Shown in pieces: positions 10,641 through 50,365 of a DNA stretch of 64,000 bases. The first letter of the stretch is position 1. Every line of letters begins with the position of its first letter. Location of the stretch: the IMG/VR virus record IMGVR_UViG_3300029698_000133, positions 8,559 to 72,558 of that record. One strand, written 5' to 3'. The notes under the pieces are model-generated. The model was not told the origin of the DNA. It searched no databases and saw only the letters and a list, made by a program, of their open reading frames with translations. This DNA comes from a virus. Position numbers and translations under genes: made by a program.

Positions 10641-11855
10641 TCAGTTTTTCTCAACTTCAATATGGTCTGGATATACCAGTACCTTCGATACTTCCTTTTC
10701 AAACCGTTCCTGATCCATGTTCAGCCACTCAAGTTCTCGCAGGATTGCATCGATAAGTTCTTCTTCCTTAATAAAGCGGTTGCCGCATCGCTCATTGCCT
10801 TTTCCTTTTTGCCGGTTTCGGCAGTTCCACGCTTTATAGGTGCTTTGCGTCTTGAAACCGCCAGCAGCTTTCAAAGTCCGGCGCAAAAAGGGAGCACCAC
10901 ATTCTCCACAGAATACTTTGCCGTAGAGGAAGTGATGCTCCCTGTTCGTTTTATGAATACCGACCTTTGCCAGTTCTTTTCGTTTTTCCAGAATTTCCTG
11001 TGCCTTATCCCATGTCTCCCGATCTATGATTGCTTCATGGTCATCCCACAGATAATTGGATTCCACCTTCTGATTCGGATTGGGCTTCTTGGTCAGGTAG
11101 TCCAACGGAGCTTTCTTCTGCAACCGCTTGTCACCCACATAGGTTTCATTTGAAACCATGTACCGGAGAGTTTCTACTCCAAACCCCTTTTTACTGTGCA
11201 ACGATTGAGCCCCCAGCTCTTCCAAACCTTTAGCGATTTGCCTATAGCTCTCGCCTTCGATGAATCTGCGGAATACTTCCTTTACAATCCAAGCGTCCTT
11301 GTTGGGAACCAGCTCGCCATCCACACAGTCGTAGCCGAGAATACGATTATTGCCGAGATTGTACTCACCTCGTGCAAATCGGCTTGCATAAGCAGCCTTT
11401 TCATTTTCACTGATAGAATGACTTTCATCCTGTGCCACTGCTGCCAAGATGGATAGGACGAAATCACAGGTTGGATCATCTGTGCGGATATTTTGTTCCT
11501 CAAAAATGATTGTAACCCCCAGCGTTCTAAACCATTTGGCATACTGCTGGCAATCCACCATGTTCCGAGAAAACCGGGAAATACTCTTGCAAATGATAAT
11601 ATCCAGCTTCTTGGCTTCGGCGGCCGCCGCCATTTCCTGAAAGCCCGGTCGATTTTTCACTCGTGTAGCAGAATGCCGGTCAGCATATACCTTAACCAGT
11701 TCCCAGTCGGGATGACTTTGGATCAGCTCCTCGTAATACTTCTGCTGAGTTTCAAAGCTTTCATCCTGCTCGTTGCGAAAAGTGCTGACACGGCAATACG
11801 CGGCCACACGTTTCTTTGCCACTGGGATTTTTGGCATTACCTTTTTAATAATCAT
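10641..11855 (-). CDS. large serine recombinase (404 aa), third of a tandem trio
   Basis: KRVAAYCRVST catalytic motif, recombinase domain, CxxC...C zinc-ribbon region. Confidence 0.85.
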   Translation of the reverse strand: MIIKKVMPKIPVAKKRVAAYCRVSTFRNEQDESFETQQKYYEELIQSHPDWELVKVYADRHSATRVKNRPGFQEMAAAAEAKKLDIIICKSISRFSRNMVDCQQYAKWFRTLGVTIIFEEQNIRTDDPTCDFVLSILAAVAQDESHSISENEKAAYASRFARGEYNLGNNRILGYDCVDGELVPNKDAWIVKEVFRRFIEGESYRQIAKGLEELGAQSLHSKKGFGVETLRYMVSNETYVGDKRLQKKAPLDYLTKKPNPNQKVESNYLWDDHEAIIDRETWDKAQEILEKRKELAKVGIHKTNREHHFLYGKVFCGECGAPFLRRTLKAAGGFKTQSTYKAWNCRNRQKGKGNERCGNRFIKEEELIDAILRELEWLNMDQERFEKEVSKVLVYPDHIEVEKN

Positions 11856-13356
11856 TTGCTGCTACTCCATTCTCCTTGGCACGGAGGTTCTTTGCCGTCT
11901 GCATGGCAGCATTACGCTGTGCCTCCCGCGTATTCACTGACTTCTTATCAGCCCGCACCACGCTCACCGGCTTGTTCTCGCTCCGCTGCGCACGGTCCAG
12001 CGAGTTCCGATAAAGCTCTGCCACATGGGTCGGTTCCTCAACCTTGGATGCATTCAAAGCAACCTCGCTCTCCAGACCACATTTCCAGAGCACCCGCATG
12101 GTGTCCTGTTTAAATTCAATGTGCCCCACCAAGTCATCCAGCCAGTAATACTGGACGGTGTCCAGTTTCGGGCTCTCTGCCTTGATTTCCAGCATCCTCT
12201 GCATAGCTACCGTCCGCTTCTTTTCCTTGATTTCAAGGGTGTTGTAGGCTTCCAGCAGGGCAGCATCCACAAGATACCCTTTGACCGCATACCCACGGCA
12301 GCCGTCCACATCAAAGCAGCCAAGGATGCGCTTGTGGCTGTTTACTTTCATGACCCTCGGAATCATCTTCTTCCCACACAGCGGGCAGACAATGTTTGTA
12401 TCGAAGTAGGGATACCGGCTGTACTCCCCATGCGGAGATTTCAGTTCCATAATGCGCTGTACCTGCTGGTAGGTATGGCGGTCGATAATAGGAACATGGT
12501 GGTTCCTGACGTTGTAGACCGGAATCACAGTCGAGTCGTTCCGGACACTCCTATGGGAAATATGGTCAACACTGACCCATTTCTGAAGCCGCATATCACC
12601 AATGTACTTCTCGTTCTCAAGGAGATACTTAAGGGCGGTCTTGTTCCACGTCTGCTTGCCCCTTGCGGAAGGAGCCTGTATAAAGGTCAGCTCATCCAGA
12701 ATGTCCGTCATGGGGATGCCGTACTGGTACATTTTGAAAATCATCCGCACAATGGCAGCTTCGTCCGGTTCAATGACAATTTCACCGTCCTTGGTCTTCC
12801 GATAGCCATAGGTCTTGGTCCAGCGCGACTCACCACTTTCAAACCGCTTGCGAATGCCCCATTTCAGGTTTTCGGAGATGGAACGGCTTTCCTCCTGTGC
12901 AAAAGCCGCCATGACCGTCAGAATCAGTTCGGACACCGACGTTGCCGTATCCAGTCCTTCCTTTTCAAAGTAAAGCTGGACACCGATGCTCTGAAGATGG
13001 CGCACATAGGACAGACATTCGACCGTGTTGCGGGCAAATCGAGAGATACTTTTTGCCATGATATAATCGACCTTGCCTGCCTCGCAATCCTCCATCATCC
13101 GCAAGAACTCTTTACGCTTTTTCACGCTGGTTCCGCTGATGCCCTCATCGGCGTAGACATCCACCAACATCCAGCCAGGGTGCTGGGCAATCTTAGCGCG
13201 GAAGGCTTTCATCTGCTCCTCCAAGCTGTGGAGCTGAATCTCCTGGTCCGTGCTGACACGGGCATAGACTGCAACGCGGACTGTTTTCAAGGTGCTAAGT
13301 GCCTGAAAGCCAAGCTTCTGTACCCCAGTGTCTACCTTTTCTACTGTAATTTCCAT
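11845..13356 (-). CDS. large serine recombinase (503 aa), second of the trio
   Basis: VRVAVYARVST, YADEGISGTS, recombinase domain and CPLCG zinc ribbon; RBS AAGGAG. Confidence 0.85.
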   Translation of the reverse strand: MEITVEKVDTGVQKLGFQALSTLKTVRVAVYARVSTDQEIQLHSLEEQMKAFRAKIAQHPGWMLVDVYADEGISGTSVKKRKEFLRMMEDCEAGKVDYIMAKSISRFARNTVECLSYVRHLQSIGVQLYFEKEGLDTATSVSELILTVMAAFAQEESRSISENLKWGIRKRFESGESRWTKTYGYRKTKDGEIVIEPDEAAIVRMIFKMYQYGIPMTDILDELTFIQAPSARGKQTWNKTALKYLLENEKYIGDMRLQKWVSVDHISHRSVRNDSTVIPVYNVRNHHVPIIDRHTYQQVQRIMELKSPHGEYSRYPYFDTNIVCPLCGKKMIPRVMKVNSHKRILGCFDVDGCRGYAVKGYLVDAALLEAYNTLEIKEKKRTVAMQRMLEIKAESPKLDTVQYYWLDDLVGHIEFKQDTMRVLWKCGLESEVALNASKVEEPTHVAELYRNSLDRAQRSENKPVSVVRADKKSVNTREAQRNAAMQTAKNLRAKENGVAANDY

Positions 13357-13368
13357 GTACTTTTCTCC

Positions 13369-14310
13369 TTATTGCCATTTGGGGTCGTTCAGGACCTTCT
13401 GCTGTTCATCATTGTATTTTTTTCGTCCGGAGTGGAGCAAGCCCATCTGAATCATGGTCTGCACACGCTCGAACTGTTCTCTGCTGACAATGCCTTCATG
13501 ATGGTCCTCCAGATGAACTTGGGCGCGTTCTCCCCTGTTCCGCTTGCTGTATCGGTGGCCGTTCTTGCCGTAGGCCGTGTAGTAGCAATCCGTCCAGTAA
13601 TCCCCCATGTATGCGACATTTTTCAGCATATTGGGTAGTCGATTTCGATTCTGAGACCATGACACACCGGTATTTTCCTCATCCTCCATCTTATCCAAGC
13701 AAGCTCGGATATCTGCGTAGCAGACTCCTTTTGCCGCTTGGTCAAAGGCATAGCGGACACGGCGGGCCTCGGATTCTTCAATTCTCCATTCACCCTGCTT
13801 GTTGACCCTGCGAAAGCCGTAGGTCACACGGCCGGTCGGAATGCCCTGGTCATGGAGATAGGCGATGCCTGCTCGAACATTCTCACCGATGCTCTTGGAC
13901 TCCTCCTCGGCAATGATGGCAAGGATGTGGAAGAACAGCTCGCTCTGGCCATCCATCGTGTTAATGCCCTCTTTTTCAAAAATGACCGGGATGCCCAGCT
14001 CTTTCAGCTGACGCACCACGGTCACACAGTCAAGCATATTTCGGGAGAAACGGGAGATGGACTTGGTATAGATGATGTCGATTTTGCCATCCATGCAATC
14101 TTGAATCATCTGTCGGAATTCCGGCCGACCCTGCGTACTGCGTCCGCTGCCTTCATCCGCATAGACCTTTACGAGTTCCTCATCGGGGTTATTGGAGAGC
14201 AGCTCTGTGAAGTAGCTTTTCTGAATCTCATAGGAACCTTCCTGACACTCCATGCCGGTGCTGACTCTGCAATAGGCCGCCGCCCTTTTCTGTTTCACTA
14301 CAATTTCCAT
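13369..14310 (-). CDS. serine recombinase (about 313 aa), first of the trio; zinc ribbon not recognisable
   Basis: KRAAAYCRVST catalytic N-terminus plus recombinase domain; start set at MEIVVKQ after RBS AAGGAGG. Confidence 0.8.
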   Translation of the reverse strand: MEIVVKQKRAAAYCRVSTGMECQEGSYEIQKSYFTELLSNNPDEELVKVYADEGSGRSTQGRPEFRQMIQDCMDGKIDIIYTKSISRFSRNMLDCVTVVRQLKELGIPVIFEKEGINTMDGQSELFFHILAIIAEEESKSIGENVRAGIAYLHDQGIPTGRVTYGFRRVNKQGEWRIEESEARRVRYAFDQAAKGVCYADIRACLDKMEDEENTGVSWSQNRNRLPNMLKNVAYMGDYWTDCYYTAYGKNGHRYSKRNRGERAQVHLEDHHEGIVSREQFERVQTMIQMGLLHSGRKKYNDEQQKVLNDPKWQ

Positions 14311-14551
14311 TGCGTCATCCTCCTTGGGGTAGTCGTATAATGCCGCATGTATGGCTGAATAGCAAGTTCTGTCGCCCAGATAAATCGGCATATTACCGAC
14401 AAACTATCTGCCTGACAGAACGCCTGAATTGCAGCATATATGACAAATGTAAAGGGCTTCCCGGTCAAATTGGGAAGCCCAGAGTGCGACGTTTGAATCA
14501 GCCCGGTCTATGTGCCAGAGAGTGCTTTTGTGTCATCGCAACGAGGTGATA

Positions 14552-40896: not shown

Positions 40897-40942
40897 TTTT
40901 CAGCAAATCCTTTCATTTTTTCTTTCCTTGTGTTCCAACAAG

Positions 40943-40951
40943 TGGTATAAT
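40943..40951 (+). promoter_or_regulatory. extended -10 promoter element TGGTATAAT upstream of the Abi gene
   Basis: TGnTATAAT consensus 34 nt upstream of ATG 40985. Confidence 0.5.
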
Positions 40952-40984
40952 ATAGTCTATACTGTTGCTTACGGAGGTTTTTCC

Positions 40985-41956
40985 ATGCTGACGATAAATC
41001 AGTTGATGCGATATCTGCGTTCCAAACATCATATTACTGTCAAAAGCAATCAGTCCCAGTCATTGCGCAACATGGGCTACTATCATGGTTTTAAGGGCTA
41101 TCGGTTTATCCGAACCCCGAACCAAAGGATTGCTTTTTCTTCGTTTGATGAAGTCTCTGCTTTAAACAATTTCGATATGAAATTGAAAGCGTTGTTTTAC
41201 CCTAAGGTCATGTTTATCGAAACTGCATTAAAGAGCTATGTGATTGAAGCCACACTTAAGGATTCTCATTCTGAGAACATCGACACAATCTTCGGTAAAT
41301 CAATCACAAACTACCGTTCCTTCACTCCAGGTAGCAGAAACTATCATCAGGAATACGCAAAACGCATGTCGCTTCGTAGCAAAATCAATAGTGCTTTGCT
41401 TCGTGATTATGGAAACAAAAAGCAAACCGTCAATCATTTTTTTGACACCGACCGGTCCATACCTATTTGGGCGGCTTTTGAATCCCTGGCACTAGGTGAA
41501 TTCGGAACTTTCTTTGCGTGTGCAAACGCGAATGTCAAAAAGAGTACTTCTGCAATACTTCACCTGCCCAGTCAACTTGACGCTGATGGAAGAATTACAG
41601 AGTTCATTATTTATTCAATCAAAGACCTCCGTAATGCTGTTGCTCACAACAACACTATTTTCGACACGCGGTTCCAAACTGGTGAGATCAATCAGCGTCT
41701 TGTTGCACTTTTAGAAACCGAAATAGGCATTTCAAATCTGGATTTCAAATATATTTATTCATACGTCATACTCCTAACCTACGTTCTCAGAAAAATGGGT
41801 GAAACCAAAACATCCTGCAAGCAATTTTTGAATGCGTATATTGCCTTGACCGATGAATTGCGCACACAACTCCCGGCAAATGTCTGCAATCAAATTCTAG
41901 GCACTCAGCAACGTCCACATCTGCGCCAGCTGCAAAATTTCATTTCCAATTCGTAA
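40985..41956 (+). CDS. abortive-infection protein, Abi_2 (AbiD/AbiD1/AbiF) family
   Basis: N-terminal block QSLRNMGYYHGFKGYRF...FDMKLKALFYPKVMFIETALKS matches the Abi_2 pattern (YY..gY...f...fD..LR..l...iE..lr); 323 aa; AT-rich; opposite strand to all surrounding phage genes. Confidence 0.7.
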   Translation: MLTINQLMRYLRSKHHITVKSNQSQSLRNMGYYHGFKGYRFIRTPNQRIAFSSFDEVSALNNFDMKLKALFYPKVMFIETALKSYVIEATLKDSHSENIDTIFGKSITNYRSFTPGSRNYHQEYAKRMSLRSKINSALLRDYGNKKQTVNHFFDTDRSIPIWAAFESLALGEFGTFFACANANVKKSTSAILHLPSQLDADGRITEFIIYSIKDLRNAVAHNNTIFDTRFQTGEINQRLVALLETEIGISNLDFKYIYSYVILLTYVLRKMGETKTSCKQFLNAYIALTDELRTQLPANVCNQILGTQQRPHLRQLQNFISNS

Positions 41957-41964
41957 GATTCTCT

Positions 41965-41992
41965 TGCATAATTTCTTTTCTTGTGGTATAGT
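41965..41992 (+). promoter_or_regulatory. second promoter TTGCAT-16-TGgTATAGT immediately downstream of the Abi stop codon
   Basis: Seen directly; would start a transcript at about 42000. Confidence 0.4.
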
Positions 41993-41997
41993 ATAGC

Positions 41998-42068
41998 TAT
42001 GAATTGCGGTGGTCGTCTTCGGACAACACCTTGAAAGAGCCTGATGCGTCGGGCTCTTTTTCTTTTTG
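41998..42068 (+). ncRNA. candidate 65-70-nt small RNA between the second promoter and the terminator
   Basis: Promoter, imperfect hairpin with TTCG loop (GGTGGTCGTC-TTCG-GACAACACC), then the terminator hairpin; no ORF. Confidence 0.25.
42034..42068 (+). terminator. rho-independent terminator (AAGAGCC stem / 10-nt loop / GGCTCTT followed by TTTTCTTTTTG)
   Basis: Perfect 7-bp stem plus a T-run of 11 with one C. Confidence 0.65.
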
Positions 42069-42309: not shown

Positions 42310-43931
42310 AAAACGATCATGTCACGTTCATCGTAGATGCTGCCCTGCTGCTGTCCTTCATTTCGGATGCAGCGGTCCAGTGCCATGATCGCAGCGACGA
42401 TACCGTCGATTTTCTCCGGCGACTTTACCTTGGTAGGCTTAATATTGCCGGCCGGATCAGTGTCCACGACCACATTGCCGGCCATCCATGCCATGATGGG
42501 GTTGCCGCCGTGAACGATACGTCCTTCCATCAGGAGCTTATAGAACTCCTTGGTGGGCGGGCTCATATCCTTAAACCCTTGTCCGAAAGGCACGACCGTG
42601 AATCCCATCCCCTCTAAGTTCTGGGTCATCTGCACCGCTCCCCATCGGTCAAAGGCGATTTCCAAAATATGATAAGTCTTGCCCAGTTCTTCGATGACTT
42701 TTTCGATGAACCCGTAATGGATGACATTGCCCTCGGTCGCCATCAGGTAGCCCTGCTGGAACCAAATGTCATAGGGCACAGATGCCCTGCGCACACGCTG
42801 GGGAATCGTATCCTCCGGAATCCAGAAGAACGGCAGCATGATGTACTTTTCCTCCGGGGTTCTGGGCGGGAACATCAGCACAAAAGCCGTGATGTCACCG
42901 GTGCTGGACAAGTCCAGTCCACCGTAACAGTCACGGCCTTTGAGGGCTTCCATATCGATTGGCTGGTTGCCGAGGTCATAGATGTGTTCCGGGATAAATC
43001 GGGTCAGAGAGGACACCCACATATTCAGACGGAGCTGCTTGAATACATTCTCCTCTGCTGGGTTGTCCAGTGCCTCTTGGTAAGCATCCCGGACGCGCTG
43101 GATCTGGATGGTCTGTCCCAGTGAGGGGTTGGCCTTATACCAGTTGACTTCATCGTGCCAGTCATCCTCATCGGTCAGACCATAGACCACCGGGTAAAAG
43201 GTGTGGTCAATTTTCCGACCGTTCAGCAGGTCAAGGGCTTTCATGTGCAGCTCATAGCAGATACTCTCCTTGTCCGTGCCGGCCGTGGTAATCAGGAAGA
43301 ACAGCGGCTGTTCACGGGCGTCACCGGAACCTTTGGTCAGGACATCGTAGAGCTTGCGGTTGGGCTGGGCATGGACCTCATCCAGCACCAGACCGGACAC
43401 ATTCAAGCCGTGCTTCGTGCCGACTTCCGCTGACAACACCTGATAGAACCCGGCGTTGCTGTAATTCACAATGCGTTTGGTTGCCGCCATAATCTTGCAG
43501 CGTTTCATGAGTGCCGGCGTCATCTGCACCATCTGGTTGGCAACGTCAAAGACGATGGATGCCTGCTGCCGGTCGGCGGCAGCGCCATAGACTTCTGCGG
43601 AGGGCTCGTTATCGGCAAACAGCAGATACAATGCCACCGCAGCGGCCAGCTCCGACTTGCCGTTCTTCTTTCCGATTTCGACATAAGCTGTGCGGAACTG
43701 TCTGTTTCCGCGCTCATCCACAATACCGAAAACATCCCGGATGATCTGCTCCTGCCAAGGGAGCAGCCAGAACCGCTTGCCCGCCCACTTGCCTTTGGTG
43801 TGTCGGAGGTTTTCGATAAAGCGCACGGCGCGGTCGGCCTTGGCTTTATCGTAGTGACAGGTCGGCAGCATGAAGCGGCTGGGCTTGTAGTCTTTGAGTT
43901 TTGGGTAGTTCTTCGGTCTGCTCTCCATCAT
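42306..43931 (-). CDS. terL: terminase large subunit
   Basis: Terminase_1-type ATPase (Walker A region VEIGKKNGKSE, LVLDEVH Walker B) and nuclease C-terminal half; 541 aa. Confidence 0.9.
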   Translation of the reverse strand: MMESRPKNYPKLKDYKPSRFMLPTCHYDKAKADRAVRFIENLRHTKGKWAGKRFWLLPWQEQIIRDVFGIVDERGNRQFRTAYVEIGKKNGKSELAAAVALYLLFADNEPSAEVYGAAADRQQASIVFDVANQMVQMTPALMKRCKIMAATKRIVNYSNAGFYQVLSAEVGTKHGLNVSGLVLDEVHAQPNRKLYDVLTKGSGDAREQPLFFLITTAGTDKESICYELHMKALDLLNGRKIDHTFYPVVYGLTDEDDWHDEVNWYKANPSLGQTIQIQRVRDAYQEALDNPAEENVFKQLRLNMWVSSLTRFIPEHIYDLGNQPIDMEALKGRDCYGGLDLSSTGDITAFVLMFPPRTPEEKYIMLPFFWIPEDTIPQRVRRASVPYDIWFQQGYLMATEGNVIHYGFIEKVIEELGKTYHILEIAFDRWGAVQMTQNLEGMGFTVVPFGQGFKDMSPPTKEFYKLLMEGRIVHGGNPIMAWMAGNVVVDTDPAGNIKPTKVKSPEKIDGIVAAIMALDRCIRNEGQQQGSIYDERDMIVF

Positions 43932-44404
43932 CCGCCACCTCCCAGCAGGTTTTCCATCTCATCAGCAGCATCCGCAGGGCTGCAATCCGAGGCAATGATC
44001 CGGCTTCGGGAGGATGGGGTCAGACCGAACTGCTCGGCAAAGCGGTTCATGATTTTCAGATAGGTCTGTGCAATGGAGACCTGCGGCACCTGCTGCCAAT
44101 AGCCGGAGGGCGTTTTGACGATGGTGCCGTGCTGGGTGATGAATTCTTCTGCTTCTTTCCATCGTGCGTATGCCTGACAATAGCCGGCGAAGGCAGCCAT
44201 GTCCACTTCGGTCAGGATGCCGATGGCTTCCATCTGCTTGGCAAGACGCCGCCATTCTTTTTTTGCTTCCGGCTCCAGCCATTTCGGACACGCCGGTGCT
44301 TTCTTTGTGGGCTTCGGTTCGCTGGTATTCAGCGGATGCTTGCCCGGATTGCCTTCCAGTTCCTTCATGGCGGTCGGCTTCGGTTTTCTGCCTCTGGTAG
44401 CCAT
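43928..44404 (-). CDS. terS: terminase small subunit (P27 family)
   Basis: 158 aa; KPKPTAMKELEGNPGK N-terminus typical of P27-family TerS; overlaps terL. Confidence 0.75.
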   Translation of the reverse strand: MATRGRKPKPTAMKELEGNPGKHPLNTSEPKPTKKAPACPKWLEPEAKKEWRRLAKQMEAIGILTEVDMAAFAGYCQAYARWKEAEEFITQHGTIVKTPSGYWQQVPQVSIAQTYLKIMNRFAEQFGLTPSSRSRIIASDCSPADAADEMENLLGGGG

Positions 44405-44439: not shown

Positions 44440-44476
44440 AAAAAGGACCTCCGAAGAAGTCCTTTGTATATCAAAC
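44440..44476 (-). terminator. hairpin AAAGGAC-loop-GTCCTTT followed by TTTTCTTTTG (minus-strand sense)
   Basis: Seen directly between gene 44526-44903 and terS. Confidence 0.5.
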
Positions 44477-44525
44477 ACGGCGGATACGAGACACAGCCCC
44501 CTGCGGGGCGTGTGTCCTTTATTGG

Positions 44526-44903
44526 TTATGCGTTGGGGTTGGCTTCTTTCCAAGCCTCGTACTCATCGACCAGCTCTGCCTCCTCGATGACCTGCCAGAC
44601 CGCGCAGAATCGGATGCGCTGGCGTTCTATGTCCTCGGCCGTCCAGCTCTCCGGCTTGTGGCTCATGTCGTGGTAGGCATCCATCTCGGCTCTCGTCCGC
44701 TGGAAAAGGATGTCCTTGAGCTGCAGGGTTTCGGCGTTGTTCCGCAGGGTGTACCGCTTGTCCTCGGCTGCCCGGCAAAGTTTGCCAAGGTCATCGCAGT
44801 TGATGCTCATGTCCTGCTTGAACATGAGCTCAATGCCGGTCAGCTCTCGCTCGGTGGCAGCCGCCTGAATGCTGGCAAGGTAGGTTTTGGCTTTCTTCAT
44901 CAT
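44526..44903 (-). CDS. hypothetical protein (125 aa), first gene behind promoter cassette 1
   Basis: RBS GGAGGATACAGACC; coiled-coil-like. Confidence 0.5.
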   Translation of the reverse strand: MMKKAKTYLASIQAAATERELTGIELMFKQDMSINCDDLGKLCRAAEDKRYTLRNNAETLQLKDILFQRTRAEMDAYHDMSHKPESWTAEDIERQRIRFCAVWQVIEEAELVDEYEAWKEANPNA

Positions 44904-44944
44904 GGTCTGTATCCTCCGTATGCTTTGTTTTCCGTGGGGCTTCT

Positions 44945-45045
44945 CCCCTTCGGTGTGACTGTATATTACCGTCACTGGGGAAGTATATCAAGCGGCTATG
45001 ATACACGATCATTCGCCCACAGTCTTGTCGGATATGTGTATATCC
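44945..45045 (-). promoter_or_regulatory. repeat cassette copy 1: operator-like TGATCGTGTATCA, then -35 TTGATA, 17-nt spacer, -10 TAATAT, then leader hairpin GGGGAGAAGCCCC
   Basis: -35 at 44986-44991 and -10 at 44963-44968 (minus sense); one of 8 homologous copies. Confidence 0.6.
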
Positions 45046-45106
45046 TGCGCACGGAAGATCTGCCGCAACGAGCAAAAGCCCCCCGCAGGGAGCCCCCGCC
45101 CATATC

Positions 45107-45391
45107 TCAGTGTGCGTTCCGGATGCACCATTCGATGGCGTGTCCGGCATCCGAGAAGACCTCATCCGAAATCTTCAGCAGTTCCAGTCGGCACTCGATC
45201 GATGAAAGCCCTTCCTTGGGGTCCTCAGCGAATCCGTAAACCGCAGCCTCCACGCCGCCCTTCCAGTTCGTTTTGGCAACCAGAACCCGGTCGCCAAACT
45301 GCAGGATGCTGTCGTTGCAGGGACTGAGCAGGTCGTAGTAGCTCTCGATGCTGATGCTGTGTTCCGGGAAGTTGTTCAGATGCTTCTTCAT
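45107..45391 (-). CDS. hypothetical protein (94 aa)
   Basis: RBS ACGGAGGAT, downstream of cassette 2. Confidence 0.5.
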   Translation of the reverse strand: MKKHLNNFPEHSISIESYYDLLSPCNDSILQFGDRVLVAKTNWKGGVEAAVYGFAEDPKEGLSSIECRLELLKISDEVFSDAGHAIEWCIRNAH

Positions 45392-45429
45392 GGTGAAATC
45401 CTCCGTGTTTTTTCATTCCGTAGGGTCTT

Positions 45430-45525
45430 CCCCTTTCGGTATGCACATATTACCGTCATGTGGGGAGGATAGCAAGCGGCTATGCTGCACGATCATCCGC
45501 CCGGAATACCGGGCAGAATGTACAT
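45430..45525 (-). promoter_or_regulatory. repeat cassette copy 2 (TTGCTA-17-TAATAT, leader GGGGAAGACCC)
   Basis: Homologous to copy 1. Confidence 0.6.
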
Positions 45526-45749
45526 CACTCTCCGTCCTCGGCATCCTGTTCAATGAATTCCCGGATTACTTCATAAAAGAGCTGGGGGTCGTATTCCAGC
45601 GGCTCACGACCTTGGGAAAAATCAATTTCAATCTGGTCCTTGACCATCTCCTTGGCAGCTTCCAGCGTGAAGCCAGCCTTATCCTCGTCATTCATATTGT
45701 TGTAGATGTCCACGATAAGGTCCATGACTCTTTCGTCGTTCATACTCAT
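45525..45749 (-). CDS. hypothetical acidic protein (about 74 aa)
   Basis: RBS GGAGGA before MSMNDERV. Confidence 0.45.
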   Translation of the reverse strand: MSMNDERVMDLIVDIYNNMNDEDKAGFTLEAAKEMVKDQIEIDFSQGREPLEYDPQLFYEVIREFIEQDAEDGE

Positions 45750-45862
45750 TCCTCCGTTGCCCCACCACCTCGCCACACAGCCCCTGTGTGGGGCTTGTGC
45801 GGTTTGGTTGGGGGAGTTTGTTGGCTTGCATCTGCGCCCCCTTTGTGGGGGCTGTGTCGGGC

Positions 45863-46057
45863 TTACTTCTCCGCCTTGCCCAGAAGGTAGGCTTCCTCCA
45901 TGGCTTTCTGGATGCCCCAGACGGGAACCTCGATGAAATCCTCACTGTCGCAGCCGTGCGCTTCAAGGTCGCCTCGGTTTTCCACCTCCACCATCAGGCG
46001 CTTTGCGATGTCCAGCAGGGCTTTCTGCTGCTTCCTGGTCAGGGTCTGCTTTTTCAT
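45863..46057 (-). CDS. hypothetical protein (64 aa)
   Basis: Downstream of cassette 3. Confidence 0.45.
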   Translation of the reverse strand: MKKQTLTRKQQKALLDIAKRLMVEVENRGDLEAHGCDSEDFIEVPVWGIQKAMEEAYLLGKAEK

Positions 46058-46077
46058 GTCTATGTACCTCGCTTTCG

Positions 46078-46160
46078 TTTTTGTGACTGTATATTACCGT
46101 CACGTCCCGCAGATAGCAAGGCCGCAGATTACACGATCATTCACGCCAGGATCGGTGTAT
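46078..46160 (-). promoter_or_regulatory. repeat cassette copy 3 (TTGCTA-17-TAATAT, short leader)
   Basis: Homologous. Confidence 0.55.
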
Positions 46161-46225
46161 ATTTGAGAGCCCTAGCACAGGAAAAGGGGCCGCCCTTTCA
46201 GGCAAGCCCCCCCGCAGTTTTCTGC

Positions 46226-46714
46226 TCAGTAGTCTTCTTCCTCATCGTAGTCGTCTTCGCAGTCGTCGTAGTCCTCTTCCTCATCGTAGTCGTCTTCGCA
46301 GTCGTCGTAGTCCTCTTCCTCATCGCAGCTGTCGTCCCAGTCTTCCGCCATATCGCGGTAATCCCACATATCCTTGGTGGGCTGGCTGCGAAGGTCGGGG
46401 TTCTGCTTGATGTAGTCGGCAACCGCACCCTCAAGGGTATCCAGAACCTTTTCGTAGGCATCCTCGCTGAAGATCTCCCAAAGGGCTACGGTCAGGCTGC
46501 TGATTTCTGCGTTGCCCTTGGCGATCAGGAACCGGGCCGCGGGGTTGCAGGTTTCTTTGCCGTAGCCCTGGTTGACCATGTCGCCGTCGTTGAAGAATCG
46601 GTACCCGATCCGTGCGGTGGCTCTGACCAGTTCTCCGGCGAGGCTATCCGCCTTGCCGCTCGTGGGAACCAGTTCCTCGAAAAGCTTATTGATGCGGTTT
46701 TCATTCTTCGTCAT
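46226..46714 (-). CDS. acidic protein with C-terminal D/E/Y/C-rich tandem repeats
   Basis: C-terminus DYDDCEDDYDEEEDY encoded by about 2.5 copies of a 42-bp tandem repeat (46226-46330); RBS GGAGGATACAAAA. Confidence 0.5.
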   Translation of the reverse strand: MTKNENRINKLFEELVPTSGKADSLAGELVRATARIGYRFFNDGDMVNQGYGKETCNPAARFLIAKGNAEISSLTVALWEIFSEDAYEKVLDTLEGAVADYIKQNPDLRSQPTKDMWDYRDMAEDWDDSCDEEEDYDDCEDDYDEEEDYDDCEDDYDEEEDY

Positions 46715-46759
46715 TTTTGTATCCTCCAGCGTGTTTTTTGTGTTTTCCGTGGGTTTTTC

Positions 46760-46848
46760 CCTTTCGGTATGCACATATTACCGTCACTTTCGCACACTAT
46801 CAAGCGGCTATGATACACGATCATTCGCCCCTAGATTTGTGTACATTC
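46760..46848 (-). promoter_or_regulatory. repeat cassette copy 4 (TTGATA-17-TAATAT; leader GGGAAAAACCC)
   Basis: Homologous. Confidence 0.6.
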
Positions 46849-46918
46849 AGGCGGTATGACATTGGACGGACACGAGCAAAAGGCCGGTTTCCCAGCCCCT
46901 TGCCCCTATCCGTCCGGT

Positions 46919-47179
46919 TTACTTGCGGATTTCGAGGTAGCTTGTATTGCCCCAGCAATCGGTGGTCTTGAACCGCACCTTCTGTTCGGTTTCCCGGTCG
47001 AGGGCAACCTTCTTCAGAAGTTTCATCTTCTGGATGCGCCGCAGAAGGTCTGCTGCGTTCTCGGCATCTTCGATGGCATCCTGGATCTCGACCACCGAGC
47101 AGTCGGTGCCGTACCAAAGATTGCTGAGTGCCTCCGGAATGCCGTTGGCAGTGAAAAGTCGGATGTTCGTGTAGGTCAT
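46919..47179 (-). CDS. hypothetical protein (about 86 aa)
   Basis: RBS AGGAAGATAAACACC. Confidence 0.45.
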   Translation of the reverse strand: MTYTNIRLFTANGIPEALSNLWYGTDCSVVEIQDAIEDAENAADLLRRIQKMKLLKKVALDRETEQKVRFKTTDCWGNTSYLEIRK

Positions 47180-47199
47180 GGTGTTTATCTTCCTTCGTT

Positions 47200-47290
47200 T
47201 TTGTGATTGTATATTACCGTCACTCAAGGGTGATAGCAAGCGGCTAATGTACACGATCATCTAGCCCAGCACTCCGGAAAATGTGTCACT
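47200..47290 (-). promoter_or_regulatory. repeat cassette copy 5 (TTGCTA-17-TAATAT)
   Basis: Homologous. Confidence 0.6.
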
Positions 47291-47840
47291 TTGCGCCGTC
47301 GTGGTATTCCTCGATATACTGCCTTCCGTCCGGTTCGGTGACCACCGCAGGGTAGCGCACACGGCTGCCGTGCCGGGTCAGGAGCTCGGCGGCAAGGTCT
47401 GCAAGTTCTCCGAGGATCTCCATGTTCCATTGGAGGTCGTCATCCTCCGCCATGACCTTGCAGAATTCATACGCAGCGTTGTAGATCTCATCGTTGCGGG
47501 CACTCTGGGCATCCGAAAGCTCCAGTTCCTCGTCCGTCTCCGGCGCCGTGGATTTCGGGCACTCTGCCCAGCGCCCTTCGTAGGTCTCGCCAGCCTCACA
47601 GCCGTCGGCGTCGTATTCGTTGACCCGAACCCACCGGTTCGACTGGAACACTCGCTCGGTGATGCCGTTCTTCCGGATGCTGAGCATCACCTTCTCCCCA
47701 TTTTCATTGACACCCCACAGGGCATCCGGGTAATCCCCGAACTCCTGAATCATCTGACGGCGAGTGGCAAGGTCGCCAAAATTGGCGGCCAATACATTGA
47801 GCCGGATCGTGTCCAGCTTCTTGTCCAGTTCCATTTTCAT
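47286..47840 (-). CDS. hypothetical protein (184 aa)
   Basis: RBS AAAGGGGAGAACGAAC; stop overlaps the next cassette. Confidence 0.5.
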   Translation of the reverse strand: MKMELDKKLDTIRLNVLAANFGDLATRRQMIQEFGDYPDALWGVNENGEKVMLSIRKNGITERVFQSNRWVRVNEYDADGCEAGETYEGRWAECPKSTAPETDEELELSDAQSARNDEIYNAAYEFCKVMAEDDDLQWNMEILGELADLAAELLTRHGSRVRYPAVVTEPDGRQYIEEYHDGAK

Positions 47841-47857
47841 GTTCGTTCTCCCCTTTC

Positions 47858-48064
47858 TCAAAATTCCAAGGTTTCCAGAACCTCGTCCGTGCCGGTCTCC
47901 CAGTCGTGGCGGGTCAGGCGGATGCGGCTGTACATCTCGGCGCTGTCCGGCTCATCGAAAAGCCGGAAGCATTCTCTGGCAACCCCCTCATCGGTGTACT
48001 GCTGGGTCTCGTCGGGCTGGCCGTCCAGCCGGGTGAAGGTGATCTCGTAGGTGTAGCGTTCCAT
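47858..48064 (-). CDS. hypothetical protein (68 aa), coupled to the downstream gene
   Basis: ATGA overlap with gene 47286-47840. Confidence 0.45.
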   Translation of the reverse strand: MERYTYEITFTRLDGQPDETQQYTDEGVARECFRLFDEPDSAEMYSRIRLTRHDWETGTDEVLETLEF

Positions 48065-48084
48065 GTTTTTTCCTTCCTTTCCGT

Positions 48085-48185
48085 TTCGGTATGTGCATAT
48101 TACCGTCGTTTCGGCATAATAGCAAGGCCATAAAACGTCATATTATCGACGATCATCAGCCCATATCTTTGGTGGATCTATGTCG
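48085..48185 (-). promoter_or_regulatory. repeat cassette copy 6 (TTGCTA-17-TAATAT)
   Basis: Homologous. Confidence 0.6.
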
Positions 48186-48825
48186 ATAAATGGCCTTGAT
48201 AAATATGGTATCGGCTTTCATTGTAATGTGCCGTTCTGCCGTAGTTTGCGTGGTTGCCGGCGTACCAGATGTCGGCAAGCTCGGTCATGGTCGTCGGCTT
48301 TCTCTTGTTCAGCTGGTCAAGGAATCGGGGGTCGACCACTCGGTAGTACTGTCCGGTTCTGCCTGCATCGATGCGAATCGCTCTGCCGATCTGTTCTTCG
48401 TGGGCGGCCATGATGTTGACCAGATTCCGCAGGGTCTTGGGGGTGTGGTTGCCCTTGCCGATGTGGATGTGAACGCCGCATCCCCGGCTGGGGCTGGACT
48501 TTGCGCCAGCCTTGCGGAGCAGTCGGATGATCGCCTGCAAGGTCTCGATATCCTCGTAGGTAAGGATGGGGGTCACCATCTCGCACTTTTCAGCTTCCGG
48601 TCCGTGGATGCTGATGTCTCGCTGGAATTTCCAAACCCTGCCCTGCTGGTCCTTGCAAGCCCAGCTCATGTACCCGTACTCGCCGGCTGCGTACCATGCG
48701 GTCGTCCCGAAGAACTCGGCAACCTTTCTGGCGGCTTTCTCGCGGGTGATGTTGTTCATCTCAACCTCGACCCCGATGGTCTGCATCTTCATGGCTTCGA
48801 TCTGCTCTCTGGTCTTATCGTTCAT
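48178..48825 (-). CDS. amidoligase-family protein (Amidoligase_2 / glutamine-synthetase-like)
   Basis: N-terminal TIGVEVEMNNITREKAARKVAEFFG and CGVHIHIG blocks typical of the phage/plasmid putative-amidoligase family; RBS AAGGAGATAAACACC. Confidence 0.55.
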   Translation of the reverse strand: MNDKTREQIEAMKMQTIGVEVEMNNITREKAARKVAEFFGTTAWYAAGEYGYMSWACKDQQGRVWKFQRDISIHGPEAEKCEMVTPILTYEDIETLQAIIRLLRKAGAKSSPSRGCGVHIHIGKGNHTPKTLRNLVNIMAAHEEQIGRAIRIDAGRTGQYYRVVDPRFLDQLNKRKPTTMTELADIWYAGNHANYGRTAHYNESRYHIYQGHLST

Positions 48826-48859
48826 GGTGTTTATCTCCTTTTGTCTTGTTCTGTTCCCC

Positions 48860-48958
48860 TTGCGGTATGTGCATATTACCGTCATGTGGGCAGGATATCA
48901 AGGCCATAAAGGGTCAAATAATCACCGATCATTCAGAGCAAAGATCGTGTACATTATG
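48860..48958 (-). promoter_or_regulatory. repeat cassette copy 7 (TTGATA-17-TAATAT; leader GGGGAACAG)
   Basis: Homologous. Confidence 0.6.
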
Positions 48959-49056
48959 GTGAAAAACACACTTGATACTGTACATTTTCAGAGTTAATAT
49001 CGGTACAATGGAAGAAGCTCTCGCTTATCCAGCGGCCCCCATAAGGGGTCAGGAGC

Positions 49057-50205
49057 TTACGCTCCCGCCTCCTGCGCCTGGGGTGCGCCGTCAGCCCCAC
49101 AGTCGGGCTGTGTGGGGGCTTCCGCTGCCGCTTCGGCCGTTTCCTCGGCGGCAGAAACGCCGCCGTGTGTCGCCTGTTTTGCGACTTTCAGCGCATCTCG
49201 TTTTGCCTTTTCCTTGACCCGGAACTTTTCGGCATCTTCCTTGGTGCGGAATGCCGCATGACCGGTAAGGTTCTGCATCAGGAGCTTGCGGATGGTCTTG
49301 TGTTCATCCCCGTTCAGACCCAGTCGGATCAGCCAGATGCGAAGTGCGTACTTCTCATTGGCATCGTTGACGGTCTTTGCCTGAATCCGCTTTTGGGTAA
49401 CTGCCATCCGGTTCATAGCGGAACAAAGTTCTGTGTATGCACTCACCTTCTCCTGCGTCAGCGGACCGGCAAAGGTCAGGCTGATTTTTTCTGCCGTGAT
49501 AGAGATTCCAGTCATGCCGGTTGTGCCGGCACCCAGGCGGTACTCTTCCAGCTCATCCAGCATCTCCTCCACCGTGCGGGTAGATGCCTGTTCCACGGCA
49601 TCCAGCAGGCTGTTCGATACCGAGAAGTTCGTGCCCATTGCTTTGTTCAACAAAGGACCGCGGCTGTACATCAGGTTCAGGAAGTTGCGGATGCTCTGGG
49701 CGGTATGCCCAGACATCGGAAGGCTGATGGTCAGCTCGTCCACATCCTGCAAGGTCGGCTGTTCGGTCGGAACAGGTGCCTCGTCCGCATCGGTGTCGTT
49801 CACGGTGTCCATCGACTCATCCACGTCCACCGGTTCCTGAGCTTCCGGGGATTCCTCGGCAGTTGCGCCCGGTTCCACGGTGGGCTGGGTATCTTCGGTG
49901 CCGTCCACAGTCTCATCTGACTCTTCACACTCCGATTCCGTGGCCTCCCCACAGGTGGCTTCCGTTTCCGGAGTCCCCGGGGTTTCCGCACCTTCCTCAC
50001 GGATGATGCCCTCGTCCAGCAGCGTCCGGATGATCTCCGGCGCAGCGCTGTCTTCGATCACAAGCGTTCCCTCCTTTTCTACGGTGTAGCTGCCGACGAT
50101 GTAAGCGCAGCGCAGCATGAAAGTGTACCGGGAATGAAGCCCGGTCAACTCCATCAGGCGGCTTACCAGAACCTTGCGGTCATCAATATTCAGTGCATAC
50201 TTTTT
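49057..50205 (-). CDS. hypothetical protein (about 382 aa) with central acidic Thr/Glu/Pro-rich linker
   Basis: RBS AAAGGGG before MKKYALN; no recognisable catalytic motif. Confidence 0.5.
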   Translation of the reverse strand, partial: KKYALNIDDRKVLVSRLMELTGLHSRYTFMLRCAYIVGSYTVEKEGTLVIEDSAAPEIIRTLLDEGIIREEGAETPGTPETEATCGEATESECEESDETVDGTEDTQPTVEPGATAEESPEAQEPVDVDESMDTVNDTDADEAPVPTEQPTLQDVDELTISLPMSGHTAQSIRNFLNLMYSRGPLLNKAMGTNFSVSNSLLDAVEQASTRTVEEMLDELEEYRLGAGTTGMTGISITAEKISLTFAGPLTQEKVSAYTELCSAMNRMAVTQKRIQAKTVNDANEKYALRIWLIRLGLNGDEHKTIRKLLMQNLTGHAAFRTKEDAEKFRVKEKAKRDALKVAKQATHGGVSAAEETAEAAAEAPTQPDCGADGAPQAQEAGA

Positions 50206-50229
50206 CATGGCTTTGTGCCCCTTTCTTTG

Positions 50230-50365
50230 TTTTCGGTAGCACATATATCGCTCTGAATCGATGAAATAGCAAGGCCATTTCTCGACATTCTTCATATTCG
50301 ACCTTTTACACGATCCGTGCAAAACACGACTGTGCAAGATCATCCGATATGTACGCCCACTGTAT
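50230..50365 (-). promoter_or_regulatory. repeat cassette copy 8 (degenerate)
   Basis: Retains the TTGCTA box and the GATCGTGTA upstream box. Confidence 0.4.

Follow-up and report, generated by a model that had tools for sequence, protein, structure and literature searches.

A repeated promoter-like cassette precedes accessory genes in a prophage lineage of gut Clostridia

Introduction

The PeSL of T4-like phages is a composite of about 100 bp, made of a sigma-70 promoter, a G/C stem-loop and a Shine-Dalgarno (SD) sequence, that is repeated before ORFans and mediates shuffling (Arbiol, Comeau & Krisch 2010, PMC2839356; Comeau 2014, PMC4122927). Its promoter and terminator activity, as well as the formation of mini-circles, have been shown experimentally (PMC2839356; PMC4122927). 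On the Bacillus plasmid p576, the repeated EGeRS2 unit places a strong sigma-A promoter, whose -35 element directly adjoins an operator, before four establishment operons, and these units are under the control of Reg576, a repressor that also regulates itself (Val-Calvo et al. 2021, PMC8708921). Here, we describe a repeated cassette in a 64,000-nucleotide stretch of viral DNA (IMG/VR record IMGVR_UViG_3300029698_000133, positions 8,559 to 72,558; hereafter, the window), which belongs to a siphovirus-type prophage of a gut Clostridia bacterium. That the element is a prophage follows from the presence of the same phage on contigs of 439 and 511 kb. An initial annotation of this DNA had considered the repeated module unlike that of any described phage, which overlooks both the PeSL and EGeRS2.

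Morons, a concept of Juhala and Hendrix, are autonomous promoter-gene-terminator units located between the core modules of lambdoid and other temperate phages. The units of the window array share this layout and this kind of position; however, morons are sporadic, compositionally foreign and carry unrelated promoters, whereas the array is built from one homologous cassette, has a phage-like GC content and is conserved within its lineage. Repeated motifs that coordinate small genes are also known from the SPO1 host-takeover module, the T7 A1-A3 and T5 pre-early promoters, the stoperators of Cluster A mycobacteriophages and the start-associated sequences of Cluster K mycobacteriophages. These early-promoter arrays and mycobacteriophage motifs differ from the cassette in phage type and architecture, stoperators are repressor sites without promoters, and none of these systems is known to contain the cassette.

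Compared with the PeSL, the cassette has a similar layout (an upstream region, a sigma-70-like promoter, a stem-loop of a G run and a C run, an SD sequence and an ATG within about 100 bp) and a similar setting, with many copies in a plastic region before small accessory genes, insulating terminators or terminator-like hairpins, and indels bounded by the motif. The two sequences are nevertheless unrelated. PeSLs belong to lytic T4-like myoviruses, where about 50 copies are scattered, whereas the cassette occurs in a temperate siphovirus-type prophage of Gram-positive gut anaerobes, as one compact block with largely conserved gene order. Moreover, the stem-loop of the cassette is optional and lies in the leader, while its conserved extras are phased GTGTA/TACAM boxes, a GACGG element and CCGAAAGGG. 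PeSL activity has been shown experimentally, whereas that of the cassette is predicted from its sequence. Given the lack of homology and the non-T4-like background, the cassette is an analogue of the PeSL and not a member.

With EGeRS2/Reg576 and the acr-aca systems, the cassette has in common a sigma-A-type promoter with a conserved box just upstream of the -35 element, sometimes accompanied by a second box at the start, and with EGeRS2 also the repetition before variable anti-defense or establishment operons of a Gram-positive mobile element. In contrast to the phage-borne cassette with its GTGTA-type box, EGeRS2 resides on a conjugative plasmid and uses the box TTATCCCnnTTATCCC. Furthermore, EGeRS2 and acr-aca have a cognate ribbon-helix-helix (RHH) or helix-turn-helix (HTH) repressor behind one of the repeated promoters, while none was found among the families led by the cassette. 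A full-text search for ACGGTAATAT returned nothing relevant. Judged by its sequence, the cassette appears to be new, being homologous to neither the PeSL nor EGeRS2, with its own architecture of boxes, GACGG and CCGAAAGGG and without an identifiable cognate repressor. It would extend the PeSL idea, that repeated cassettes express accessory genes and help to exchange them, beyond lytic T4-like phages, to the temperate phages that infect Gram-positive anaerobes.

Our preferred reading, to which we assign a probability of roughly 0.55, is that the array units are autonomous promoter-leader-RBS (ribosome-binding site) cassettes for the host's sigma-A/sigma-70 polymerase, mostly provided with a terminator, which would allow the simultaneous, insulated and strong expression of accessory genes and would behave as portable, recombination-prone modules.

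Seven copies of one composite cassette form the array

The array comprises seven minus-strand copies of the cassette (A to G), each of about 100 nt, between 44.9 and 48.9 kb of the window; the units follow each other at about 0.4–0.9 kb in a single orientation. Exact copies of GACGGTAATAT lie on the minus strand at 44963, 45447, 46091, 46775, 47211, 48097 and 48873, and with up to one mismatch allowed the window contains ten matches to this sequence (0.39 expected). In each of the seven copies TTGATA or TTGCTA is found exactly 17 nt upstream of the -10 element TAATAT, as the initial annotation had proposed, and the core pattern can be written as CTTGMTA, a 12-nt variable spacer and GACGGTAATAT (that is, TTGMTA-17 nt-TAATAT). 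A nhmmer profile was built from 297 unique cassettes, all taken from other genomes and none from the window. It recovered the seven copies with matches of about 72 nt (E between 1.9e-14 and 4.4e-20) and returned no further significant match in the 64-kb window.

The eight copies counted originally are therefore seven, since the eighth (H, at about 50.25 kb) is degenerate: its -35 element at 50267-50272 is followed by GAGCGATATAT, and only the -35 part matches the model (E = 1.9). Two other matches, at 41031 and 14390, were rejected as cassettes; the former falls inside a low-GC plus-strand Abi_2 insertion and the latter, which precedes a serine recombinase gene, matches only weakly.

Conservation from copy to copy is a mosaic that reaches far outside the two hexamers. 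Averaged over all pairs of the seven copies, identity is 1.00 in GACGGTAATAT and 0.92 in the -35 element, 0.44 in the 12-nt spacer, 0.57 in the 21 nt upstream of the -35 element and 0.60 in the first 15 nt after the -10 element, compared with 0.32–0.35 in the flanks. An alignment with similarity confined to the hexamers, which the initial annotation had named as a reason to abandon the idea, is thus not what we observed.

Several finer details of that annotation apply to a subset of copies. An exact TGTACA, the heart of the proposed ATGTACA box, occurs upstream of B, D and G and within the proximal box of E, whereas A and C carry ATATACAC. The proposed operator, GAATGATCGTGTATCATAGCCGC with its TGAT...ATCA inverted repeat, is exact in copies A and D only; in F, G and H it is replaced by a variant longer by about 10 nt, and the repeat is broken in B, C and E. 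As it is not conserved among the copies, we rejected this dyad as an operator. Likewise, the GGGG-AGAAG-CCCC type of leader hairpin exists in A, B and D and not in the other five of the eight copies, and two window copies contain ACGGAGGAT and a third contains CTGGAGGAT. Neither the TGAT...ATCA repeat nor the GGGG/CCCC hairpin is a general feature of the cassette.

The cassette is widespread among phages of gut and rumen Clostridia

More than 115 IMG/VR contigs and 103 DNA stretches from species-representative genomes contain the core CTTGMTA-N12-GACGGTAATAT, the hosts being nearly all gut or rumen Clostridia. All counts of sites, families and loci given here and below are among the matches listed, namely 218 fetched loci (designated by L numbers) and the window. 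In these 219 sequences we counted at least 437 core sites, and at 381 of the 437 an open reading frame (ORF) with an RBS and an ATG begins 20–70 nt after the -10 element. Host taxa included Faecalibacterium, Lawsonibacter, Blautia, Wujia, Eubacterium, Acetatifactor and Acutalibacteraceae. Arrays of three to seven copies were common, as seen in Faecalibacterium intestinale, Lawsonibacter, Blautia, Wujia, Eubacterium and Acetatifactor, and the core was retained in a Eubacterium phage of 40% GC. At least one array gene was shared with the window in 162 of the 218 loci, and terS, terL or the portal gene lay within the stored DNA in 84 of them. A blastn comparison of cassette D with GenBank phages and PLSDB plasmids gave no match at the sensitivity of this program.

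The ORFs led by a cassette form 37 clusters, a few of them spurious, leaving about 30 credible gene families. Most frequent were the amidoligase (65 loci), g8 (48), g5 (47), Nmad4 (44) and DUF6900 (38) families, followed by g3 (29), a large serine recombinase (22) and a 58-aa ORF (20); LPD28, DUF7678, DUF7698 and orphans were also represented. This phage lineage is extremely common in human-gut metagenomes, and the cassette provides a searchable flag for its accessory/anti-defense island and for new members of that island, with about 30 families so far, most of unknown function. If active, it would also offer a compact, naturally optimized promoter-leader-RBS part that apparently functions across Oscillospiraceae and Lachnospiraceae, for which genetic tools are scarce.

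We also noted that about 4 kb of the array are 94–96% identical between L135 and L184 (Blautia sp. HCP28S3_G10) on the one hand and L174 (Faecalibacterium intestinale CLA-AA-H281) on the other, although these isolate assemblies are assigned to different families (Lachnospiraceae versus Oscillospiraceae/Ruminococcaceae). This identity could reflect a cross-family host range, recent transfer or contamination.

Cassette anatomy fits a housekeeping promoter with phased upstream boxes

After correction for ascertainment, 211 of 254 further copies in multi-copy loci keep the exact core. The spacer carries 0.0–0.6 bits and is free to vary, whereas the -35 element and the 11-mer are fixed. Off-consensus -10 elements change at position 4 (TAACAT, TAAGAT) and keep T1, A2 and T6; off-consensus -35 elements keep TTG (TTGACA, TTGCTT, TTGAAT); and the variants of GACGG (GATGG, GGCGG, CATGG) keep the G at -14, with GATGG corresponding to the canonical TGn extended -10 element. 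The selection pattern of sigma-70 promoters and the contribution of -16/extended -10 elements are well established, and the variation seen here is what would be expected of a housekeeping sigma-70/sigma-A promoter with a -16/extended -10-like element.

Upstream of the core, KTGTA is located 14 nt (115 cassettes) or 24 nt (34 cassettes) before the -35 element, and in total the 100-nt stretches preceding 312 cassettes contain 231 matches to this motif, versus 13 in a coding control. TACAM peaks 30, 40 and 50–51 nt upstream of the -35 element. As the box positions shift in 10-nt steps, the boxes lie on one face of the helix, an arrangement that would fit a protein facing RNA polymerase, be it a regulator or the C-terminal domains of the alpha subunit. 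Among A/T positions, conservation is highest at about -56, -53/-52 and -42/-41, which would fall near the centers of the two UP-element subsites. Only 19% of cassettes, compared with 2% of controls, have GTGTA and TACAM boxes that pair as an inverted repeat of 7 bp or more; the logos of the two boxes have little in common beyond GTGTA, and no strict dyad or direct-repeat structure was found in them.

Downstream of the core, CCGAAAGGG is conserved at about +2. Of 138 long leaders, 104 have a CCGAAAGG-like motif at a distance of 1–5 nt from the predicted start, among them 27 of the 29 that are unable to form a hairpin. Ninety-one of the 138 fold at -4 kcal/mol or lower, with the CCGAAAGG-like motif as 5' arm and CCC, CCCC, CCCT or GCCC as 3' arm; these hairpins start 0–4 nt from the predicted +1, and the mean folding energy of the leaders is -6.5 versus -2.7 kcal/mol for shuffles. 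About one third of the cassettes have a short leader without the motif. RNAalifold yielded no consensus structure from MAFFT alignments of the leaders, and a scan of 42–52 kb against Rfam 15 found no family in them (the sole match, a sub-threshold terminator-like ctRNA at the terS-proximal terminator, scored 27.6 bits against a gathering score of 50). We therefore rejected a conserved leader RNA structure, given that the hairpin is optional, that its 5' arm AAAGGG is a conserved sequence and that no covarying stem is present. The leader sequence, and not its structure, is the conserved feature. SD-like sequences close to the 5' end and 5' hairpins are known stabilizers of mRNA in Firmicutes, and GAAAGGGG resembles an SD sequence.

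Genes headed by the cassettes

The seven good putative promoters of the window serve ten genes, all on the minus strand, as do the cassettes themselves. Although the initial annotation had placed one or two small genes behind each copy, and ORFs indeed follow every copy, not all of these are small. The degenerate cassette H (50206-50345; TTGCTA at 50267-50272, then about 17–18 nt and GAGCGATATAT; model E = 1.9) heads g1 (49057-50208), a 383-aa protein without a Pfam hit that matches PHROG 2443 ('amidoligase enzyme') at profile positions 164–426; its gene adjoins an SH3 gene in relatives, too. Cassette G, of type 2 (48823-48957; TGTACA 48948-48953, -35 48896-48901, -10 48873-48878, ATG 48825; E = 1.4e-16), precedes g2 (48178-48825; 215 aa), which is an Amidoligase_2 protein (PF12224, E = 4e-43, profile positions 2–207 of 245) and confirms the amidoligase-family gene predicted for the array. 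This gene is truncated compared with its relatives of 311–312 aa, full-length copies being present in L016 and L220–L227. Cassette F, also of type 2 (48062-48202; -35 48120-48125, -10 48097-48102, ATG 48064; E = 1.4e-15), leads one unit of two ORFs with RBS, g3 (47858-48064; 68 aa) and g3b (47286-47840; 184 aa), neither of which had a family match in Pfam, PHROG and NCBIfam scans.

The remaining cassettes are of type 1. Cassette E (47177-47288; proximal box GTGTACA, -35 47234-47239, -10 47211-47216, ATG 47179; E = 1.2e-16) heads the orphan g4 (46919-47179; 86 aa). Behind cassette D, which has a leader hairpin (46712-46848; TGTACA 46840-46845, -35 46798-46803, -10 46775-46780, ATG 46714; E = 3.9e-19), lies g5 (46226-46714; 162 aa), the acidic protein with a D/E/Y tandem-repeat C-terminus that had been singled out from the start; the repeat (46226-46345) has a unit of 39 nt encoding DYDDCEDDYDEEE, and its copy number varies, as judged by relatives of 149 or 162 aa. 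Cassette C, a type 1 variant with a short leader (46055-46163; -35 46114-46119, -10 46091-46096, ATG 46057; E = 1.9e-14), is followed by g6 (45863-46057; 64 aa; DUF6900, PF21841, E = 7e-17), whose low-confidence AlphaFold2 model shows two helices, and g6b (45525-45743; 72 aa). Cassette B (45389-45526; TGTACA 45519-45524, GC hairpin 45497-45516, -35 45470-45475, -10 45447-45452, leader hairpin, ATG 45391; E = 4.4e-20) precedes g7 (45107-45391; 94 aa), an Nmad4-domain protein (PF18756, E = 3.6e-20). Finally, cassette A (44901-45043; -35 44986-44991, -10 44963-44968, ATG 44903; E = 7.3e-18), with the GGGG-AGAAG-CCCC hairpin and ACGGAGGAT in its leader, heads g8 (44526-44903; 125 aa), the last array gene before terS.

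The AlphaFold2 model of g8 is all-helical, with five helices and a mean confidence score (pLDDT) of 88.7, and a Foldseek search of it against the PDB gave no fold match (best E 1.0); a protein identical to g8 is listed in 3544 of the collection's blocks. Searches of PDB sequences with g5, g6, g7 and g8 yielded nothing significant. We take the kinds of genes found in the array to belong to 'polyvalent protein' or conjugative-element establishment regions, and as such families are typical of these regions, the array genes are suggested to have an anti-defense or establishment role.

Most units end in a terminator-like hairpin

Hairpins follow g4, g5, g6, g6b, g7 and g8 (6 of the 10 genes) and lie outside the conserved cassette. 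On the minus strand, the terminator-like hairpin after g4 (46864-46915; inverted repeat I2) folds at -44.9 kcal/mol (z = -7.0) and is followed by UUUUG, that after g5 (46182-46214) has the form GGGGGGC...GCCCC followed by UUUU, and RNA folding indicated hairpins between g6 and g6b (45775-45857) and a terminator-like hairpin after g7 (45069-45101). Two hairpins separate g8 from terS (44442-44516), the second of which (44442-44465) is a canonical intrinsic terminator located 38 nt before the terS ATG. The array thus adjoins terS but is separated from it by this terminator, and no promoter was found between the terminator and the terS ATG. Each cassette heads its own unit and most units are closed by a terminator-like hairpin, which agrees with the independent transcription units of the initial annotation, except that there are seven good copies instead of eight. 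With a putative promoter and a terminator-like hairpin per unit, the array would amount to a string of insulated, co-expressed transcription units.

A promoter scan also identified a plus-strand promoter-like site, TTGATA-17-TAATAT (48972-49000), which is arranged back to back with cassette G, and points into the 3' end of g1; a partial inverted cassette match lies at 48947-48977. Such opposite-strand sites occur within 200 nt upstream of 41 of 368 cassettes versus 0 of 368 controls, and may give rise to antisense RNA. Back-to-back sites (TTGATA-17-TAATAT or GAATAT) were also seen in L220 at 6250-6330 and 6680-6760; sites of this kind either aim at the unit upstream, at its 3' end, or would drive a small gene that diverges from the cassette.

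Units come and go along a conserved backbone

Across the loci, the array has a conserved backbone (amidoligase ... g3, g4, g5, DUF6900, Nmad4, g8, terS) along which units have been gained and lost. Outside the core, identity is 0.66 between cassettes of the same gene family in different phages, compared with 0.45 between different families, indicating that promoter and gene are inherited as a unit; paralogues within a phage reach 0.57, which perhaps reflects homogenization of cassettes within a genome.

Comparison of homologous prophages revealed different genes behind the same cassette. In L084, an F-type cassette, including its inverted upstream part, drives the 58-aa ORF instead of g3, followed by a hairpin and a type 1 cassette. 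In L174, which has seven cassette copies, this arrangement continues, with g3 behind the type 1 cassette and g4 directly next, while g3b and cassette E are absent. The homology of the window to L084 and L174 breaks at cassette edges. The shuffling for which the initial annotation had expected the cassettes to provide homology is thus in line with the edges of gain, loss and replacement in relatives; it does not account for the one rearrangement described next.

Relatives of 92–95% identity (L016, L113 and L220–L227) have 3.1 kb of extra DNA at window position 48203/48207 (L016 5349-8484; L220 2984-6676). This DNA encodes the amidoligase C-terminus, DpnD-PcfM, two GGACT (gamma-glutamyl cyclotransferase-like) proteins, DUF4314 and DUF3846, and on the opposite strand an 82-aa acidic protein behind a back-to-back cassette-like promoter, TTGATA-17-GAATAT. 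The deletion junction in the window (48179-48207) overlaps an inverted copy of the cassette -35 region, TATCAAGGCCAT, which forms part of the inverted repeat I1 (48120-48142/48179-48201), and shows only the 4-nt microhomology CATA. L224 shares the window's 3.1-kb deletion.

In L230 (3300029700_000244), the early region with the region-4 protein and DUF7768 is joined directly to the g7 terminator, cassette A, g8 and terS (7580-7700). This join is either a deletion derivative lacking about 25 kb or a chimeric assembly, and we rejected it as an example of a cassette moved into the replication module.

A model for the array and its alternatives

According to our preferred reading, each unit would begin with a distal TACAM box (often TGTACA) some 30, 40 or 50 nt upstream of the -35 element and a proximal GTGTA box 14 or 24 nt upstream of it. 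The near-consensus -35 element TTGMTA, a 17-nt spacer ending in GACGG (-16/extended -10-like, with the G at -14) and the -10 element TAATAT would then position transcription start about 7 nt after the -10 element. The leader, which begins with ACCGAAAGGG, is SD-like and often closes a 5' hairpin, and would most likely serve as a 5' stabilizer of the mRNA; an A-rich spacer, a strong RBS and the ATG would complete the cassette, and a GC-rich terminator-like hairpin would close most units. The phased boxes are probably bound by one factor on the same face of the DNA as RNA polymerase, candidates being the polymerase alpha C-terminal domains (on a UP-like element) or a phage or host regulator. With either, the seven units would act as one regulon. 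Finally, the shared sequence of about 100 nt would provide homology by which units could be gained, lost or exchanged, a role that PeSLs have in T4-like phages.

Several points weigh against this reading. Promoter activity, start sites and timing of the cassettes are predictions from their sequence, and the early expression named in the initial annotation is an assumption. A plain sigma-A promoter would not require conservation as tight as that of GACGG, CCGAAAGGG and the boxes, which means that a dedicated factor may be essential and not optional. Genes for a sigma-70 region-4 protein and for several XRE proteins are present in the phage family. Since terS has no promoter of its own after the terminator, late transcription may enter via the array, and the units would then belong to a late or antitermination circuit. 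As for the recombination-prone nature of the modules, the case for PeSL-type recombination between cassettes is circumstantial, the sole rearrangement private to the window used the 4-nt microhomology described above and not cassette homology, and the largely conserved gene order implies that shuffling is limited.

Much depends on whether a factor can be assigned to the boxes. The initial annotation had postulated one common regulator, and conserved boxes at helically phased positions could indeed bind a common factor; however, no regulator could be tied to them. Pfam, PHROG and NCBIfam scans of the array genes and nearby small ORFs detected no DNA-binding domain, and 24 further cassette-led families contained no HTH or RHH protein. 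The 82-aa divergent gene of the relatives was considered and rejected, as it encodes an acidic protein. The cassette boxes were absent from the XRE/sigma-region-4 early region of relatives. Our searches found no phage RNA polymerase or complete sigma factor, and scans of the window detected no Q-like or ArpU/RinA-like protein. The sole sigma-related protein has region 4 only and is encoded in a relative, just outside the window. It has 245 aa, with a C-terminal sigma-70 region-4 HTH and an N-terminal part of about 170 aa of unknown nature (L228 378-1115; L230 2216-5415), and its gene heads the replication module, with three XRE-type HTH genes further upstream. This region-4-only protein is present on at least four cassette-bearing contigs, a co-occurrence that may be non-specific.

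These results bear on the view, close to that of the initial annotation, that the units form a repressor-controlled regulon. Strong sigma-A promoters would be kept off in the lysogen by a dedicated repressor on the GTGTA/TACAC boxes, and perhaps also around the start, and would fire briefly upon infection or induction. We regard this as possible. A conserved box at a helically phased distance directly upstream of the -35 element, combined with a second conserved stretch at the start, is the same layout as in Reg576 operators (PMC8708921). The excess of inverted repeats formed by the boxes over controls, a gene set reminiscent of establishment or anti-defense (amidoligase, DpnD-PcfM, DUF3846, DUF4314, Nmad4, LPD28) and the need of a prophage to silence or tolerate strong promoters point in the same direction. 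On the other hand, Reg576 and Aca sit behind one of their own promoters, whereas the cassette-led families include no HTH or RHH protein and the model of g8 matches no DNA-binding fold. Neither the lack of the boxes in the XRE/sigma-region-4 early region, nor the poor conservation of the TGAT...ATCA dyad, nor the varying distance between the two boxes is what such a repressor would lead one to expect.

A positively acting phage factor is another possibility. The phased boxes, GACGG and CCGAAAGGG at +2 might constitute the loading site of a lineage-borne phage transcription factor, either the region-4-only protein or an unrecognized antiterminator, a proposal that we find doubtful. If true, seven insulated units would be switched on together, with polymerase perhaps carried through the terminators into the promoterless packaging operon, and the result would be a new type of phage regulatory circuit in highly prevalent gut phages as well as a portable, host-independent expression module. 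The stricter version, in which the cassettes are factor-dependent middle or late promoters that load a modified polymerase (by the sigma-region-4 protein or an antiterminator) for readthrough into terS and the structural genes, seems unlikely. It can draw on the position of the array next to terS, which has no promoter of its own after the terminator, on the region-4-only protein of cassette-bearing contigs, and on the invariance of GACGG and CCGAAAGGG across host families and GC contents, which would be expected if the recognizing factor were phage-encoded. Yet the -35 element, spacing and -10 element are near consensus, while activator-dependent promoters usually have a poor -35 element, and the variation pattern fits sigma-A. 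Moreover, a region-4 protein without region 2 cannot read a -10 element, and no Q-like or ArpU/RinA-like protein was detected in the window.

That the units are instead lysogenic-conversion morons, expressed constitutively from the resident prophage to the benefit of the host, for example by superinfection exclusion, and not for lytic growth, we consider improbable. The promoter-gene-terminator layout, the strong terminator shielding the late operon and the failure to identify an operator-repressor pair would all agree with morons, but the array, with a GC content of 0.55, resembles the phage (0.525) and not the obvious Abi_2 moron at 40.9–42.0 kb (0.40), it is conserved and syntenic in the lineage and no sporadic insertion, and its gene families are typical of invading DNA and not of host protection. 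Hardly credible, lastly, is a non-regulatory origin of the repeats as scars of tandem duplication, sites of an integron-like site-specific recombinase or copies of a mobile miniature element. Repeats every 0.4–0.9 kb in a single orientation and the serine recombinase genes elsewhere in the prophage are compatible with it, whereas the mosaic conservation with fixed hexamers and a free spacer, the persistence of this pattern in hundreds of diverged genomes before unrelated genes and the constant position relative to the RBS and ATG are not. No integrase, terminal inverted repeats or target duplications adjoin the array, no attC-like imperfect repeats were found at the 3' ends of its genes, and integron cassettes are promoterless while the window units carry promoters of predicted sigma-A type.

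Phage context

The array lies between DNA-methylase genes and terS/terL. Its neighbor terS (43928-44404, minus strand; Pfam Terminase_4, E = 2e-31) is outside the array and begins the packaging and structural module, which continues on the same strand with TerL, portal, a ClpP-type protease, an HK97-type capsid protein, tail tube and a 1957-aa tape measure. Upstream of the array are genes for an SH3 protein, a C5 DNA methylase, two N4/N6 DNA methylases, an S-adenosylmethionine synthetase, an HNH endonuclease and a D5-type primase-helicase, and in a near-identical relative (L228) the region just past the right end of the window encodes SNF2, DUF932, PolA, a single-stranded DNA-binding protein and a PDDEXK nuclease. 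A first guess, prompted by the amidoligase and acidic proteins, was the leading region of a conjugative element with single-strand promoters; this was ruled out by the terS, terL, portal, protease, capsid and tape-measure neighbors.

The amidoligase DNA is 67–70% identical to that of 'Ca. Heliusvirales' (NatCom) gut phages, and in the Heliusvirales phage NatCom_991 a diverged cassette precedes the amidoligase gene (TGGATA-17-TAATAT, with AGAGG in place of GACGG). The Heliusvirales papers that we checked mention neither promoters or repeats nor the cassette.

Between terL and portal, at about 40900-42000 on the plus strand, the window contains a gene of GC 0.40 in the opposite orientation. At the same position, the near-identical L221 and L224 encode a 323-aa Abi_2 (abortive infection) protein, which is absent from other relatives; this low-GC gene is a classic moron. 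Large serine recombinases are encoded by four paralogous genes on the minus strand near the prophage's left end (6497-8458, 10641-11855, 11845-13356 and 13369-14391). Upstream of position 14391 there is only GTCGGTAATAT and a TTGCTA-17-CATTAT site, while in 22 other loci the serine recombinase gene itself follows a cassette core with a long structured leader. Lastly, the amidoligase gene of L222 (1-3486) is interrupted by three consecutive tyrosine recombinase genes, an insertion that looks like a recombinase-trio element.

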